Below, in pieces: positions 27,261 to 31,496 of a DNA stretch of 64,000 nucleotides. The position numbers and the translations under genes are program-made. This DNA comes from a virus (lineage: Duplodnaviria; Caudoviricetes): the IMG/VR virus record IMGVR_UViG_3300021399_000002, positions 64,001 through 128,000 of that record; one strand, 5' to 3'. The stretch's first letter is position 1; each line of letters begins with the position of its first letter. Below the pieces are notes generated by a model that was not told where the DNA came from, searched no databases, and saw only the letters and a program-made list of their open reading frames with translations.

Positions 27261-27734
27261 ATGTTTAATATTACACCTGTAGTTTCTTCACATCCCTCTG
27301 ATTGCGGTGCAACATGTTTAAAAATGTTATTGTCTTATTATAATATTGAGGCAGACTTAGCTACTTTAATTGAAGAGTGTAATACTACTTTGATAGGATG
27401 TAGTGCAAAAGATATAAATACAGCTGGAAGAAAATATGGACTTAATATGAAGGCATTTAAAATGGATGCTGAAGAAGTTGTGCGGCAAGACCGTCCCAGT
27501 GTCATATGGTGGAAGCATAACCACTTTGTTATATGTTGCGGTCGAGATTCAAATGATAAAATAGTTGTTATTAATCCAGATTTGGGACAATATCGTATGA
27601 CATTTGGCACGTTTAAAAGTCTATATTCTAATATAGCTTTATATAATGGTGACCCTGAAGATATAATAGAATCAGCTGATGCTTCATCAGAAGATTATAT
27701 TGAAGCACTTCAAATGTTGGGGGTGGAAGTATGA
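27261..27734 (+). CDS. stand-alone peptidase C39-like protein
   Basis: DCGATCL.M, HFVI, INPD.G. Confidence 0.8.
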   Translation: MFNITPVVSSHPSDCGATCLKMLLSYYNIEADLATLIEECNTTLIGCSAKDINTAGRKYGLNMKAFKMDAEEVVRQDRPSVIWWKHNHFVICCGRDSNDKIVVINPDLGQYRMTFGTFKSLYSNIALYNGDPEDIIESADASSEDYIEALQMLGVEV

Positions 27735-28132
27735 CACGAGAAGAACTTATCACTGCAGTTCGTTCACGAATTGCATAGATGAATACTATACTTACTACTC
27801 TTACAGATGAAACTGCATTAGAGAGTGCAGTACTTTTCCCTGTATGGCATCAGGGTGAGACCTATGAAATGGGCGCACGAATGCGATATAATGATAAATT
27901 ATATCGTGTAGTACAAACACATACTTCTCAACTTGGCTGGGAGCCAGATATTACTCCTGCATTATTTACTGAAATTACTATGCCAGGTACTATTGCTGAA
28001 TGGAAGCAGCCTACAGGTGCACAAGACGCTTATAATACAGGAGATAAAGTAATGTATAATAATCAAATTTGGGAGTCAACCGTGGATAATAATGTGTGGC
28101 AACCCGGAGTATATGGATGGATAGTTATTTAA
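27731..28132 (+). CDS. CBM5/12-like carbohydrate-binding domain protein (1 TAG=Gln)
   Basis: W..G..Y..G..Y...LY...Q.HTS and W.QPTGA.DAY..GDKV...DNNVW.PG.YGW. Confidence 0.75.
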
Positions 28133-28137
28133 TTTAA

Positions 28138-28161
28138 GGGCGCGAAAGCGCCCATTTTTTT
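28138..28161 (+). terminator. intrinsic terminator
   Basis: GGGCGC-GAAA-GCGCCC then T7. Confidence 0.85.
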
Positions 28162-28163
28162 AT

Positions 28164-28192
28164 TTGACTTTTTTTCAAACTCATGATATAAT
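28164..28192 (+). promoter_or_regulatory. sigmaA-type promoter
   Basis: TTGACT-17-TATAAT with TG. Confidence 0.8.
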
Positions 28193-28220
28193 AAAGAAAA
28201 AAGTTATAGGAGGAATTTAT

Positions 28221-28394
28221 ATGTCCGAACAACATACAATTTATGACGATATGATTGATGAGTACTTCAATCGTCATCCAGATGCAGGACTCGCTTGGTG
28301 GATGCTGCCACTAAAAGAGCAGCCCGAAGGTTTTAAGCTAGAGATGTATGATATTCTATGGGATTTAACACATAAGGAGAATAAAGATGAATAA
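28221..28394 (+). CDS. hypothetical protein
   Basis: AGGAGG RBS. Confidence 0.65.
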   Translation: MSEQHTIYDDMIDEYFNRHPDAGLAWWMLPLKEQPEGFKLEMYDILWDLTHKENKDE

Positions 28395-28446
28395 AGAACC
28401 TCTTGGATATTTGGGTGGAGATAGTTATGATAAAACAATAGCATAA
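28387..28446 (+). pseudogene. orphaned original 5' end of the deoxyribosyltransferase-like gene
   Basis: MNKEPLGYLGGD versus MEQKRPLGYLAGG at 29145; has its own AAGGAG RBS. Confidence 0.75.
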
Positions 28447-29143
28447 TTCTATTATTATACGCGAAGCTACAATAGAAGATATTTTACAATATAAACGTGG
28501 TAAAAAAGAAGTTAATCCAAAAGATTATTATTTATGTCAATGTGATTGCGGAAATTATTGGTGTCCATCTAAATTAAATTATAGAAAAGGAAAGTCTACT
28601 AGTTGTGGAAAACATTCTAATGATGATAGAATAATAAATGAAATCGGTAATATATATGGAGAATTAACTGTTATAAGCGAAGCGCCCACTCCAAATAAAA
28701 ACACTGACCATCATAAATATTGGCTTTGTTTATGTTCATGCGGCAACACAACCGTTGTCGCAGGAAGGGATTTAAGAGCAGGAAAAGTTAATAGCTGCGG
28801 ATGTATTAGGTCAAAAGGTATGTTAAAAATAACAAACATATTATCTGATAATAACATTCAATTTATTTCAGAATATAAGTTCCCAGATTTTCTTACAGAT
28901 AAATTATCTCCATATAGATTTGATTGGGGCATCATAAAAAATCATAAATTATTCTGTTTATTAGAGTATGACGGTGAACAACATTTCGATAAAACAAATA
29001 CTTGGTATAGAGAAGGAATAGATGAAATTAAAAATGAATATTGTAAAACTTATAATATTCCGCTATATCGTATTTCCTATAAAGAATATAATCAATTAAA
29101 TATTGATTATATAAAAAATCTTATACATTATGAGGAGAAATAA
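28427..29143 (+). CDS. putative homing endonuclease: Cys-rich repeats plus DUF559/Vsr-like nuclease (TAG at codon 5)
   Basis: Two C.C.CG...SCG repeats; RFD, EYDGEQH, D..KN.YC, L.RI.Y. Confidence 0.8.
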
Positions 29144-29144
29144 T

Positions 29145-29822
29145 ATGGAACAGAAAAGACCTTTAGGTTATCTCGCGGGTGGAATTATGACGCACGGAGA
29201 AAATCTTGCGCGCCAAGAAGAATATGATAAGTTCAAGGCCGCCGGAATTCCGGGTGAAGTATATAGCCCTGTTCAAAATAAGTCAATTAATGATAAGTCT
29301 AATATGACTGAAGAAGAAAATAATCAACTCGCGGAAAAAATTGTCGCAGCAGATGTTGAAAGATTATGGAATAGTGATTATACTGTTCTATGCCCAGAAC
29401 AGAGTGCTATTGGCACTATGTGCGAGATGGGAGTATTGTATGGATGGAAGTATATGGTTGATAAATTATGGGATATTGTTGTAAAATGTAAAATAGAAGG
29501 GCAACAGAAATACTTTGATCAAGGGCTTCATCAATGGGAAATTGATGAACATATTGAACTAGATCAATGTAAAGCTATTAAGGAAGAACTTATGCGGATT
29601 TCTAGACAAAAGAATTACGCTCATTACTTCGATATTCGCACCAATCATCTTAATGAGAAGGATTGGCGCCGCAGTTTCAGTATCAATTAGATGTTATATG
29701 GAATGATTTTATACGCTACGGAAGATCATATGCTGCATAATTCATTTGATGAAATTTTGCCCCTACTACAAAAAGAATATGGCAAGAAAGATGCAGATGA
29801 ACCAGTATCAGATTGGAGGTAA
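29145..29822 (+). CDS. nucleoside 2-deoxyribosyltransferase / nucleotide N-hydrolase-like protein (1 TAG=Gln)
   Basis: YLAGG, YSP, D...L..SD, GT.CEMG, SIN(TAG)MLYG. Confidence 0.7.
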
Positions 29823-29829
29823 AATAGAA

Positions 29830-30189
29830 ATGGATAATACAACTTCAACAACAACTAGTACCTCTTATACATATAAATCTCCTTCTAGCTACTAGAGTGA
29901 AAAAGGATGGGAATGCCCTCGTTGCGGCCGCATTAATGCTCCGTGGGTAAGGTAGTGTGATTGTTCTAGAAATAATTGGACTATCACTTGTGATGACAAT
30001 GAGTGGTGGAAAAAATATACAACTTGTACAAGTGATACTTTTAAAATTCATCCTGATGAAATAGTATATACTACACCCCATGTCGGCGGTAGTGATTATT
30101 GGGATTCAAACTCAAATTCCTATAAAAATACAACTACATATACCACAAATACAATTCATGATGGAAAACTTAAATATAAGGAGAAATAA
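29830..30189 (+). CDS. Zn-ribbon protein (2 TAG=Gln)
   Basis: GWECPRCGRINAPWVR(Q)CDC; GGAGG RBS. Confidence 0.7.
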
Positions 30190-30191
30190 TT

Positions 30192-31496
30192 ATGCTTTAT
30201 AATATTAATGACAAACTTCCTGCAAAGCGACTAATAGTTGCAGCACTTCAGCAGGTTGTTGCTTGTTTTGTTGCTACAGTACTAATTCCACAGATTTGTG
30301 GAGTGCCTATCGCGCCTGCAATGCTAGGAGCATGTCTAGGTACTCTATGTTATCAATTGGTTACTCGCGGTCAAAGTCCAATGTTTATTAGTTCAAGTGG
30401 TGCATTTGTAGCCGCTGTGATCGGCGCGCTCGCACTGGGAACTGCACCTAATTATCTTGCAGTATTTATCGGCGGTGGTATTGTATGTATTGTATATCTT
30501 GCCGTTGGGCTTGCCATCAATACATTTGGTACTGCTTGGATAAATAAGCTTTTACCGCCCGTTGTAATTGGCCCAATTGTTGCTGTAATTGGTTTGAATC
30601 TCGCAACATTTATTCCTACATACTTCCAAGTCAATGGTGAATATAGTCTAATTGGCTTTGGTCTTGGTATACTAACGCTACTTATTACTGCAATTATTTC
30701 ACATTATGGAAAAGGATTTATCAAAAATCTGCCATTCCTTATAGCAATTCTAATTGTGTATGGTTTCGCAGCAATTCTTACTGTATGCGGAGTAAAAATT
30801 ATTGACTTTAGCGTATTTAATAATGTAAAAATTGTACAAGTACCTGATTTTGCCTTTATGCACGCAAGTAATTGGGATTGGGCATGGTTACCACAAATTT
30901 TACTTCTATTCCTACCACTATCTCTTGTGACCATTGCTGAGCATACAAGCGACCACAAGGCGTTGAGTGCGGTTATTGGCACCGATTTAACACAAAAGCC
31001 AGGCCTTGGCTACACTCTTATTGGTGATGGCATAGCAACTGCTATTGGTACATTTATTGGTGCGATGCCAAATACAAGCTACGGCGAGAGCGTTGGAACT
31101 ACTGGTTTCAGTAAGATTTGTTCTAAATATGTAATTACACTAGCTGCTATAATTATGGGTATCGCCGCATTCATCGGCCCCTTACAAGCTTTCCTTGTAA
31201 GTATTCCTAGTGCTATTTTTGGAGGATGTGCGGCTATTCTCTATGGATATATTACTTTATCAGGTATTCGTACTATTAAAGATAATAATATTGATTTAAA
31301 TAATAATAAAAATGTTACTATTATCGCGGCTGTTCTTACACTAGGAGTAAGCGGCGCAGTATGTAATTTTGGCATTGTAAGTATTGGAACCACGGCATTA
31401 GCAATGATCGTGGGAATTGTCTTGAATCTGATTCTTAAAGATCAAACACCGCCAATACGAGGACTCCGCGCAAAAATTAATTATATTGATGATTAA
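30192..31496 (+). CDS. uracil/xanthine permease (NCS2, UraA/PyrP-like)
   Basis: Multiple TM helices, SSGAF, EH..D, GDG, PNTSYGE signature. Confidence 0.92.
   Translation: MLYNINDKLPAKRLIVAALQQVVACFVATVLIPQICGVPIAPAMLGACLGTLCYQLVTRGQSPMFISSSGAFVAAVIGALALGTAPNYLAVFIGGGIVCIVYLAVGLAINTFGTAWINKLLPPVVIGPIVAVIGLNLATFIPTYFQVNGEYSLIGFGLGILTLLITAIISHYGKGFIKNLPFLIAILIVYGFAAILTVCGVKIIDFSVFNNVKIVQVPDFAFMHASNWDWAWLPQILLLFLPLSLVTIAEHTSDHKALSAVIGTDLTQKPGLGYTLIGDGIATAIGTFIGAMPNTSYGESVGTTGFSKICSKYVITLAAIIMGIAAFIGPLQAFLVSIPSAIFGGCAAILYGYITLSGIRTIKDNNIDLNNNKNVTIIAAVLTLGVSGAVCNFGIVSIGTTALAMIVGIVLNLILKDQTPPIRGLRAKINYIDD

Follow-up and report, generated by a model that had tools for sequence, protein, structure and literature searches.

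How can an endonuclease gene sit inside the coding sequence of a conserved enzyme and leave that gene working? Homing endonucleases are usually described as persisting in genes by means of a self-splicing intron or an intein, or as lying between genes. The locus analyzed here belongs to the 182.7 kb genome of a rumen phage that reads TAG as Gln, and lies in a stretch of 64,000 nucleotides of it (hereafter, the window). A cassette of ~785 bp (28431 to ~29215) is found inside a nucleoside-salvage gene, coding for a nucleoside 2-deoxyribosyltransferase-like protein (NDT), and it contains a gene for a 238-aa endonuclease followed by a new RBS, a new start codon and 13 replacement codons. We consider it highly probable that the cassette is a free-standing homing-endonuclease element which occupies coding sequence by supplying a replacement for the 5′ end of the gene.

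All the features of the locus are on the plus strand. The terminator of the preceding unit (28138-28153), a stem of six GC pairs with a T run, is followed by a near-consensus promoter (28164-28192) composed of TTGACT, a 17 nt spacer and a TG-extended TATAAT. This promoter matches 11 of the 12 consensus positions, with TG before the −10 element, and would place the small gene and the orphan in a single operon with the endonuclease and NDT. The small gene, P0003 (28221-28394), codes for 57 aa with no assigned function and no family match in profile searches; by tblastn we found it upstream of NDT in L001, L006, L025, L040, and L162, and it is the native upstream neighbor of NDT in endonuclease-free relatives. 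Its stop codon overlaps the ATG of an orphan ORF of 19 codons (28387-28446), which has its own RBS (AAGGAG, 7 nt upstream) and reads MNKEPLGYLGGDSYDKTIA before its stop. This orphan is the stranded native start of NDT, MNKEPLGYLGGD; it is target-derived up to 28430, and past the junction its frame continues as SYDKTIA and then stops. At the left junction, GGTGGAGAT-A(G)TTATGA (28414-28430), the old Gly-Gly-Asp codons become a GGAG RBS: GGTGGAG occupies 28414-28420, 6 nt ahead of the endonuclease ATG (28427), and an extra G at 28424 places this ATG out of frame with the orphan. The endonuclease gene, P0002, extends from 28427 to 29143, and its last codons overlap the RBS of the replacement start (GAGGAG, 29132-29137). 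Together with the ATG at 29145 and codons 1-13 (MEQKRPLGYLAGG), this RBS makes up the imported gene start (29132-29183), from which NDT restarts as MEQKRPLGYLAGGIMTHG. The right edge of the mobile unit is a stretch present only in cassette-carrying alleles (29184-29215, IMTHGENLAR...), within which a Ser-to-Glu change falls. The initial annotation had described an orphan start with its own RBS, then an endonuclease and then a restart, and this order was found in full. A 912-nt contig from run X1 covers 28320-29231 with one difference, and the same layout is present in four other independent assemblies, so it is not an assembly artefact.

The interrupted gene, P0001 (29145-29822, 225 aa), matches phrog_1817 over residues 7-213 (E 4.9e-35). 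Its match to PF05014 (E 2.2e-6), at 28.2 bits just below the cut-off of 28.8, begins at residue 9, the Y-L-A-G-type motif. By these profiles P0001 is nucleoside 2-deoxyribosyltransferase-like, with a family match that takes in the N-terminal motif, and it is predicted to be a working NDT gene in which the imported start is joined in frame to the gene body.

Related phages reveal the site in its uninterrupted state. About 75 of 82 alleles are endonuclease-free and run M..PLGYLGGD-IMT..GSN unbroken, and GGD..SN is unbroken in 69 of 81. The continuous reading MNKEPLGYLGGD-IMT that had been anticipated for such alleles is therein present in equivalent form, and exactly in ten loci (L001, L003, L004, L008, L009, L013, L018, L049, L050, and L079), all of them endonuclease-free and beginning with the exact orphan peptide. 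Since these ten alleles share every letter of their start with the orphan, the likeness of the orphan to the restart is not due to chance. When the endonuclease-free L001 was compared to the window using blastn, two matches were obtained, 28138-28430 and 29184-29967, with a 7-bp overlap (ATTATGA). As the first ends at 28430 and the second resumes at 29184, the inserted segment is ~753 bp long, and 717 of these bases are the endonuclease ORF. Within NDT, the insert lies between codons 12-15 and the remainder of the gene. The old GGD and the new AGG align codon for codon, with no indel between the copies. Contigs from runs X1 and X3 skip from 28423 to 29202 and carry TTATGACA[C/T]ATGGCTCT in between; these are an endonuclease-free allele, that is, potential recipients in the same gut samples. 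Summed over contigs, the depth of this allele is 29, compared to ~9.5 across the endonuclease gene, which suggests that fewer of the phages in the samples carry the endonuclease than lack it. Of the metatranscriptome runs, X18 alone shared words with the locus, and its contigs cover only the NDT body and come from relatives. A blastn search of 27700-30200 against 50,697 GenBank phage records returned no match and, consequently, no annotated relative.

The protein encoded in the insert is predicted, from its sequence and its model, to be a DNA-cutting homing endonuclease. P0002 has two zinc-ribbon-like CxCxCG...SCG[CK] repeats (approximately residues 37-62 and 101-126) followed by a nuclease domain (residues 127-238, nt 28805-29140). 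In the AF2 model (mean pLDDT 85.9), residues 129-237 align with the catalytic domain of I-Bth0305I (3r3p) with a Z of 10.7 (94/97 residues, rmsd 3.1), and the nuclease domain also matches Vsr (1cw0, Z 10.0) and NGO0050 (3hrl, Z 9.0); the predicted fold of the C-terminal domain is Vsr-like and closest to that of I-Bth0305I. Foldseek with the whole model gave weak values (best E 8e-3) because two small Cys-rich domains are attached to P0002, and a second look with VIA resolved the nuclease domain. Searched by sequence, the PDB yielded only chance-level matches, both for P0002 (phmmer) and for a profile of 33 sequences. D166, E180, D182, H186, D199, and K202 are invariant in 33 homologues, as is Q185, and D166/E180/D182/H186/D199, candidate residues for the E, D, x, H, D catalytic motif, resemble Vsr D51/H64/H69/D97 by spacing alone. 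The PHROG labels on the matches of P0002 are homing or intron-encoded nuclease. The initial annotation had called the product a Cys-repeat, DUF559-like endonuclease; the Cys repeats were there, but in place of DUF559 we found a Vsr-like fold and a match to Pfam DUF2726 (PF10881) of 20.3 bits, below the cut-off of 24.7. DUF2726 is matched by 22 of the 33 members of the family at E<=0.01 (best 3.1e-8), so by profile the P0002 family is related to DUF2726 and P0002 itself remains below threshold. Among the homologues, one has a match to the Pfam CapR domain (E 9.3e-9). The N-terminus of P0002, with its two Cys-rich repeats, gave no match to NUMOD. The phage genome has no second copy of this endonuclease family at E<=1e-3, hence there are no paralogous cassettes to compare within it.

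We found the same cassette in four further metagenomic phages (L006, L026, L162, and L163). The orphans of the resulting five orphan-type loci are MNKEPLGYLGGD (twice), METKRPLGYLGG, MNNMLIGYLGGD, and MKEPLGYLGGD, and the genes upstream are of the P0003 type, methyltransferase-like, a longer form of P0003, or an unrelated 98-aa gene. Across the five phages the cassette is 85-98% identical, against about 70-80% for the NDT bodies. Taken by parts, identity to the window is 85-93% for the endonuclease and 85-98% for the new 5′ end, and 65-89% for the orphans and 69-71% for the 3′ part of NDT. Compared with one another, the orphan-type carriers are 83-97% identical in the new 5′ end, whereas the median over all alleles is 56%. 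Only over 29148-29215 do the endonuclease-carrying alleles rank 1-5 of 81 in identity to the window, and over 29184-29215 ranks 1-5 of 81 are held by endonuclease-carrying loci and L040. From 29216 on, those loci rank 10-72, so that identity is ordinary again ~30 nt past the junction. A cassette so much more similar than its flanks, and with so sharp a right edge, points to recent, repeated and site-specific transfer. By these comparisons the insert behaves as a single mobile unit, endonuclease plus new 5′ end, that has moved between diverged genomes.

The imported copy also differs from the piece that it replaces, as had been claimed initially. All five orphan-type loci read AGG..EN (AGG..GEN), and the changes from GGD to AGG and from GSN to GEN affect otherwise near-invariant positions. 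A few endonuclease-free alleles vary here too, among them L046 and L077, which read AGD, and L075, which reads GAN. The AGG..EN of the five alleles is shared by descent, which leaves effectively two lineages (AGG..EN and the AGD..AN of L014), and a Fisher-type test of site variant against endonuclease presence was rejected as misleading for this reason. In L014, an orthologous endonuclease (73% aa identity) stands free between a PhoH-like gene and NDT, with its own N-terminus (MNMENL...) and no orphan; from its arrangement, L014 appears to be the ancestor-like form. L040 has no endonuclease and reads an orphan-type MNKEPLGYLG, a G, and then a new-type GIMTHGEN, a hybrid of orphan and new start that is 91% identical to the window over 29184-29215. 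Its sequence marks it as a probable footprint of endonuclease loss or of a short conversion.

The alternative that survives best, which we nevertheless hold to be unlikely, is that the locus is a relic of one old illegitimate recombination that spread, if at all, by ordinary homologous recombination, while the endonuclease is inactive or cuts elsewhere. The site changes could then be hitch-hiking neutral differences, ordinary recombination could yield hybrids of the L040 type, and the low contig depth of the endonuclease-carrying form would be in line with a relic. Against a relic stand a cassette far more similar than its flanks and sharply bounded ~30 nt past the junction, and nonsynonymous changes that are concentrated in the ~8 codons nearest the junction, where other alleles are near-invariant. 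Moreover, none of the six carriers has a broken ORF, and every family-invariant acidic and His residue is kept.

The five loci have the left junctions GAT-AGTTATGA, GAT-AATTATGAC, GAT-AGTTTATGG, GAT-GATTATTATGA, and GGC-AAGAACTTATGA, where the target has GAT-ATTATGAC, and the GAT-A(G)TTATGA of the window matches the GAT-ATTATGA of uninterrupted alleles. The endonuclease ATG, and not only its RBS, looks target-derived, as it would be the Met codon of the target I-M-T. As for the RBS itself, GGTGGAG had been placed initially inside the old GGD codons; this stands for the window, but the GGAG core occurs there only, relatives having GGTGGC or GGCGGT instead, and in L006, L026, L162, and L163 the RBS in the old GG codons is weak. 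All five lineages have small indels that break the frame at the left junction (+1, +1, +4, +2, and +2 nt). We also considered P0003 as the source of the endonuclease tail, since ACATTATGAGGAGAAATAATATG (the last endonuclease codons plus the new RBS) resembles ACATAAGGAGAATAAAGATG (the end of P0003 plus the old RBS), and rejected it because the likeness is too short and is dominated by the RBS.

This junction would also be compatible with an orphan that is a functional upstream ORF or leader controlling endonuclease expression, or a 19-aa peptide with a role of its own, which we judge very improbable. In 5/5 loci the orphan has a strong RBS, an intact ATG and a frame open through GGD, and this frame differs from that of the endonuclease (offsets +1, +1, +1, +2, and +2); because the orphan crosses the RBS and ATG of the endonuclease and stops 15-17 nt later, its translation must interfere with endonuclease initiation. 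However, each orphan is simply the sequence of its own recipient allele, what follows GGD varies (SYDKTIA, NYDKTIA, KNL, SLW, and DYYEARA), and the orphan of L162 is changed at the Pro-Leu positions of the NDT start, which are conserved in 81/81 working alleles. No RNA structure beyond that of shuffled controls was predicted over 28370-28470 (z = 0.19). A leader function could, in any case, coexist with the replacement of the gene start.

Least credible, to the point of being nearly dismissible, is a self-splicing group I/II intron or intein-like element whose exon 1 is the orphan, spliced to ...IMT. In its favor, introns are the typical home of Vsr-like (EDxHD) endonucleases, I-Bth0305I included (PMC3239194), and the orphan, with its good RBS and start codon, ends exactly at a conserved codon boundary. 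Against it, covariance models gave no Rfam match at E<=1 on either strand of 27900-30000, the ~36 bases that the ORF leaves free in the insert are no room for a ribozyme core, the complete RBS, ATG and 13 duplicated codons at the end of the insert would be pointless under splicing, the changed Pro-Leu positions in L162 are as expected of a decaying remnant, and an intein is excluded because orphan and endonuclease are in different frames. The insertion is almost entirely ORF and showed no sign of an intron, in line with the intron-less strategy of the initial annotation.

Under the replacement of the gene start by a free-standing cassette, the mobile unit (~28431-29215) would be the endonuclease gene, the new RBS, the start codon, 13 NDT codons and ~30 nt of gene body. 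During co-infection, the enzyme would cleave NDT alleles that lack the endonuclease, at or close to GGD|IMT, codons for the conserved Y-L-G-G motif of the N-terminus. Some distance can separate the cut of a free-standing phage endonuclease from its insertion point, as with SegG (PMC2988022), so the true cut site may not be GGD|IMT. The break would be repaired from the donor phage, with the NDT body as right-hand homology and the stranded old gene start carried by the donor as left-hand homology; being framed by NDT sequence on both sides, the insertion would not depend on which gene lies upstream. For recombination, a left homology of ~37 nt with 65-89% identity is short, and some invasions may be illegitimate joins instead. 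The recipient's own start would become the new orphan and the imported start would take over translation; with AGG..GEN in place of GGD..GSN, it would presumably no longer be cut. An endonuclease gene of the L014 type, free-standing and directly upstream of NDT, was probably the ancestor. One illegitimate join may have fused the cut target (...GAT ATT ATG ACA) to endonuclease codon 3, after which the enzyme would start at the Met codon of the target, with its RBS in the old Gly-Gly codons.

The strategy of replacing the end of a gene is itself known from fungal mitochondria and from the WHO elements of yeast. In the mORF gene hybrids of Glomus (atp6, atp9, cox2, and nad3; Beaudet et al., 2013, PMC3630166), and in the atp6 mORF gene hybrid of Allomyces macrogynus cited in that paper, an endonuclease ORF is inserted inside a conserved protein gene, as in our cassette. 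There, and by prediction here, a diverged foreign gene end takes over and the native end is left as an unexpressed duplicate; in both, the native end matches close relatives while the imported one does not. However, mORFs replace the 3′ (C-terminal) end, with the ORF downstream of the imported piece, whereas here it is the 5′ end and the ORF is upstream, so that our cassette must also bring an RBS and a start codon. The nucleases differ too, LAGLIDADG or GIY-YIG in an organelle as opposed to Vsr-like in a phage. WHO elements at the yeast FBA1 gene (Coughlan et al., 2020, PMC7282813) are likewise splicing-free homing elements that cleave a conserved gene, replace its end with each integration and leave a resistant allele, as ours would. 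Nevertheless, at FBA1 it is the 3′ end that is replaced, the encoded zinc-finger proteins derive from inteins (LAGLIDADG-type), and the setting is a eukaryotic nucleus; experiments demonstrated their cleavage and allele specificity, whereas those of our cassette are putative. Because it replaces the 5′ rather than the 3′ end, our cassette is a variant, not a plain member, of the gene-end-replacing elements.

Among phages, the closest comparison is with the free-standing endonucleases of intronless homing, SegF, SegG, and MobE, the gene of the latter splitting nrdA in Aeh1 (PMC2988022). Our cassette shares with them a phage endonuclease gene without intron or intein, a presence/absence polymorphism between related phages, co-conversion of flanking markers and a target in a functionally critical region, and L014 has the ordinary intergenic form of the same enzyme, as in T4-type cases. 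Known endonucleases of the T4 type, however, are intergenic or divide a gene into two functional polypeptides, whereas here a short stretch at the end of a gene is duplicated and replaced; the review (PMC2988022) makes no mention of duplication ("duplicat" is absent from its text). I-Bth0305I is an intron-encoded EDxHD (Vsr-like) phage homing enzyme whose family has free-standing members (Hef) (Taylor et al., 2011, PMC3239194). Of the structures compared, it comes closest to the nuclease domain of P0002, with no match at sequence level, and its N-terminal DNA-binding part is NUMOD/HTH where P0002 has Cys-rich repeats. We found no published phage case of an endonuclease cassette replacing a gene start in the literature.

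Tentatively, and with our doubt slightly outweighing our conviction, we propose that gene-end replacement might be a general third way, next to gene splitting and to introns or inteins, in which phage homing endonucleases inhabit essential coding sequence. The stranded start would act as a portable left homology arm, making any phage with the target gene invadable whatever lies upstream; the enzyme would take its RBS and start codon from the target, and the junction indels would be scars protecting against recutting. The locus provides a natural, well-sampled series in phage: a free-standing form (L014), five invasions of different backgrounds, the L040 footprint, and naive alleles in gut samples of the same animals. 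It can explain short orphan gene starts and mosaic gene ends that confuse gene calling and phylogeny, and it describes a selfish element moving sequence between phages with only the target gene in common. For the Vsr-like endonuclease family, it offers a candidate target of ~30 bp with natural, putatively resistant variants.

The initial annotation had extended the same strategy to a second nuclease family in the window. The NDT case fits this strategy; in the tRNA-Gln/HNH case the acceptor halves are visible, but the halves 1551-1584 and 2074 onward gave no ARAGORN call when joined with a single TTGA, and the actual join is probably a different one.

Finally, both genes of the locus contain TAG codons. 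The P0002 frame is open only with TAG as Gln, codon 5 (28439-28441) being TAG in the window and CAA in L026. In P0001, TAG is codon 182 (29688-29690), and position 29688 changes from T to C (CAG) in most related contigs.

Four consecutive frames stand behind a near-consensus promoter (28164-28192), itself preceded by a terminator (28138-28153): a 57-aa gene (P0003, 28221-28394) with no family match, a 19-codon ORF (28387-28446, MNKEPLGYLGGDSYDKTIA and a stop) whose ATG overlaps the preceding stop codon and has AAGGAG 7 nt upstream, an endonuclease ORF of 238 aa (28427-29143), and a gene of 225 aa (29145-29822) that begins MEQKRPLGYLAGGIMTHGEN and is preceded by GAGGAG. The product of the last is nucleoside 2-deoxyribosyltransferase-like (NDT; phrog_1817, E 4.9e-35); its match to PF05014 (E 2.2e-6) falls slightly under the gathering score and starts at the Y-L-A-G motif. 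The initial annotation had read this layout as a stranded native start (the orphan), an endonuclease gene and a restart of the disrupted gene, and each element was found in its place. It is very probable that the endonuclease gene and the second NDT start make up a mobile cassette by which the 5′ end of the target gene is replaced. Querying IMG/VR with the NDT protein gave 80 loci, most of them rumen-type viral contigs, and the uninterrupted ...PLGYLGGDIM[TS]xGSNLAR was present in 69 of the 81 NDT alleles. Ten of the 69 start MNKEPLGYLGGDIMT, which is the orphan peptide running directly into the gene, just as had been predicted. By blastn, the endonuclease-free locus L001 matched the window in two blocks, 28138-28430 and 29184-29967, overlapping by 7 bp (ATTATGA), so that about 753 bp are inserted in the window, and the site is polymorphic for presence or absence of the insert. 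An intron was rejected, as no Rfam model matched at E≤1, 717 of the ~753 inserted bases are ORF, a complete translation start stands at the end of the insert, the orphan frame differs from that of the enzyme, and the orphan of the carrier contig L162 is altered at Pro-Leu positions that are kept in 81 of 81 working alleles.

We found the identical architecture in four other loci, L006 and L026 from IMG/VR and the metagenome contigs L162 and L163. Their orphans differ (MNKEPLGYLGGD, METKRPLGYLGG, MNNMLIGYLGGD and MKEPLGYLGGD), and so do the genes upstream of the cassette, which are P0003-type, methyltransferase-like, a longer form of P0003 and an unrelated 98-aa gene. Identity of these carriers to the window is 85-93% in the endonuclease gene and 85-98% in the new 5′ end, 65-89% in the orphans and 69-71% in the 3′ part of NDT, while the upstream DNA ranges from unalignable up to 82%. 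When 81 other NDT alleles were ranked by identity to the window, segment after segment, the four orphan-type carriers held ranks 1-4 over 29148-29183, shared ranks 1-5 with the locus L040 over 29184-29215, and were spread over ranks 10-72 from 29216 onward. Since their top ranks end at 29215, the segment transferred as a unit comprises the endonuclease, the new start and ~30 nt, roughly 28431-29215. Judged by these alignments, the cassette has moved between otherwise well-diverged phages. Codon-for-codon alignment revealed AGG..GEN in every cassette-linked allele versus GGD..GSN in the naive (endonuclease-free) ones, with GGT/GGC changed to GCG, GAT to GGA and TCT to GAA; each change lies at most 8 codons from the junction and at a position that is near-invariant elsewhere. 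A donor allele immune to cleavage would be expected to show such a pattern, although the five AGG..GEN alleles are not five independent observations because the cassette is shared by descent.

An informative relative, L014, carries an orthologous endonuclease (73% aa identity) with its own N-terminus (MNMENLKQLHNS...), free-standing between a PhoH-like gene and NDT; there is no orphan at this locus, and its NDT allele is AGD..GAN. At the left junction the uninterrupted target reads GAT-ATTATGAC, the window GAT-AGTTATGAT, L006 GAT-AATTATGAC, L162 GAT-AGTTTATGG, L163 GAT-GATTATTATGA and L026 GGC-AAGAACTTATGA. In each of the five loci AAACAA..CATAATTCT (AGCAAGGG in L163) stands 0-2 nt past the junction, which marks the start of homology to the L014 endonuclease (codons K-Q-x-H-N-S of the latter). 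The simplest reading of these junctions would be that the cassette-type enzyme has lost the initial codons of its own and uses the Met of the target's I-M-T as its start. The ribosome-binding site of the endonuclease does reuse old codons, as the initial annotation had noticed: in the window the GGTGGAG of the Gly-Gly codons provides GGAG 6 nt upstream of the ATG, and the reused site is weaker in the other four loci (GGTGGC or GGCGGT). A small indel sets the endonuclease ATG out of the orphan frame in all five (offsets of +1, +1, +1, +2 and +2, mod 3); without it, orphan and enzyme would make a single in-frame fusion. Selection for separate translation could account for these indels, as could protection of the junction, where much of the target is still present, or chance.

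We propose that in a co-infection the enzyme would cut naive NDT alleles near the GGD/IMT boundary and that repair would copy the endonuclease and new start of the donor, with the right crossover ~30 nt or more beyond the junction and the left one inside the first 12-15 codons of the recipient, paired with the orphan of the donor. With the left crossover there, the start of the recipient would be kept as a new orphan. Both homology arms would be NDT sequence, so invasion would need no conserved upstream gene, which would account for the four kinds of upstream context; the L014-type layout needs upstream homology, and this would explain why one locus has it against five with the orphan type. 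The cut site as placed here and the role of the orphan as a homology arm seem to us reasonably likely, though less certain than the cassette itself. The orphan-type layout probably first arose when a cut target was joined illegitimately to an L014-like donor. L040 lacks the endonuclease, and its NDT consists of the orphan-type MNKEPLGYLG, then G, then the new-type GIMTHGEN, with 91% identity to the window over 29184-29215. Recombination of one duplicated start with the other, i.e., element loss, would be expected to leave such a product, and so would a cut repaired off the new copy of the donor without copying of the endonuclease.

The endonuclease belongs to a large family with 481 relatives in IMG/VR (tblastn E≤1e-3), most of which are 30-45% identical and lie at other loci; the phage itself has one copy. 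An alignment of 33 members has two CxCxCG...SCGC repeats N-terminal to the nuclease domain and invariant C60, C103, C124, C126, F165, D166, E180, D182, G183, Q185, H186, D199, K202 and Y218. Pfam DUF2726 is matched by 22 of these 33 and sub-threshold by the window protein, and one member matches the CapR zinc-finger domain, which has been described in repeated form from other phage homing endonucleases (PMC10448857); the PHROGs labels are HNH, homing or intron-encoded nuclease. In the AlphaFold2 model (mean pLDDT 85.9), residues 127-238 superimpose on the I-Bth0305I catalytic domain (3r3p; Z 10.7, rmsd 3.1, 94/97 residues) and likewise on Vsr (Z 10.0) and the DUF559-like NGO0050 (Z 9.0), so the earlier label "DUF559-like" is correct at the level of the predicted fold. 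The Vsr-like 'EDxHD' homing family has I-Bth0305I as its prototype (PMC3239194). We keep this likeness at fold level because PDB sequence searches found no sequence-level link to the EDxHD family proper and the DNA-binding part is different.

Mapping of Logan contigs onto the region placed both allele kinds in the same samples. In X1, a 2013 gut metagenome that probably is the sample from which the window came, a 912-nt contig over 28320-29231 has one difference from the window; contigs of X3, a 2025 goat run, are identical to it over 28911-29230, and X4, a bovine run, yielded diverged contigs spanning the endonuclease-to-NDT junction. Other X1 and X3 contigs skip from 28423 to 29202 with TTATGACA[C/T]ATGGCTCT between, which is the naive GGD-IMT-[HY]GS allele, so donors and potential recipients share samples. 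Summed contig depth, a rough abundance guide only, was 29 for the naive allele versus ~9.5 for the endonuclease form.

Published phage strategies comprise introns, inteins, intergenic free-standing genes with co-conversion, and gene splitting, as by mobE in Aeh1 nrdA and mobA in T4 gene 39/60; a review of T4 mobile DNA nowhere mentions duplication (PMC2988022). In fungal mitochondria, gene ends are replaced by an endonuclease-borne copy in Glomus atp6, atp9, cox2 and nad3 (PMC3630166) and, as cited there, in Allomyces atp6, and yeast WHO elements replace the gene end of FBA1 with demonstrated allele-specific cleavage (PMC7282813). Gene-end replacement is thus a known class; what differs here is the phage host, the Vsr-like nuclease and the 5′ end, whereas the fungal mitochondrial and WHO cases replace 3′ ends. 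Because a 5′ end is replaced, the cassette must carry translation signals. Our literature search found no description of phage gene-end replacement by an endonuclease, an absence that thin coverage of subscription journals leaves short of proof.

The initial annotation had also proposed that a second nuclease family in the window uses the same strategy at a tRNA-Gln. An HNH-motif gene (1589-1990) is indeed flanked by two tRNA-half-like pieces (1551-2108) with complementary acceptor strands (AGTCCCT at 1551, AGGGACT near 2100), and an intact tRNA-Gln(UUG) follows it directly (1991-2065); the simple join of the halves with one TTGA, however, gave no ARAGORN tRNA, and Pfam gave nothing for the HNH protein at E≤0.01. 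The parallel with the NDT cassette is plausible. ARAGORN also called a tRNA-like gene at 854-925, beside a tRNA-Pro, with an undetermined anticodon ('ta').

All frames were translated with TAG as glutamine, and TAG is read as glutamine in this phage, whose parent record (182,655 bp, window at bases 64001-128000) has direct terminal repeats and is rated complete. Endonuclease codon 5 is TAG in the window, L006 and L162 versus CAA in L026; at codon 3 of the new NDT start the window has CAG and L006 has TAG; and at NDT codon 182 (29688) the TAG of the window corresponds to CAG in most of the related contigs from three gut metagenomes. TAG likewise alternates with CAA/CAG at equal positions in close relatives, also in the NDT 'LARqEE' of L002, L028 and L042. 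These in-frame swaps indicate a recoding that is common to this rumen phage group and still shifting codon by codon.

The middle of NDT (~29457-29613) is a replacement hotspot, where many related X1 and X3 contigs skip or swap 153-273 nt and IMG/VR loci align poorly with the window (39-61% identity). P0003 is a separate gene upstream of NDT in the window, L001, L006, L025, L040 and L162, and a P0003-like stretch lies within the variable middle of the NDT ORF in L026 (4322-4462) and L163 (2540-2680; 57-66% aa identity, tblastn); from these sequences, P0003 may be a module either fused into the NDT enzyme or encoded beside it. Just upstream of the locus, a Peptidase_C39 protein (27261-27734, E 2e-26) is followed by one that carries two CBM_5_12 carbohydrate-binding modules and has an in-frame TAG (27731-28132, E 1.7e-16), a pair that is unusual in phage and may be linked to lysis or adsorption. 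Two genes 3′ of NDT lies a 434-aa transporter of the xanthine/uracil permease family (30192-31496; PF00860, E 9.4e-58), which together with NDT looks like a nucleobase/nucleoside salvage module.
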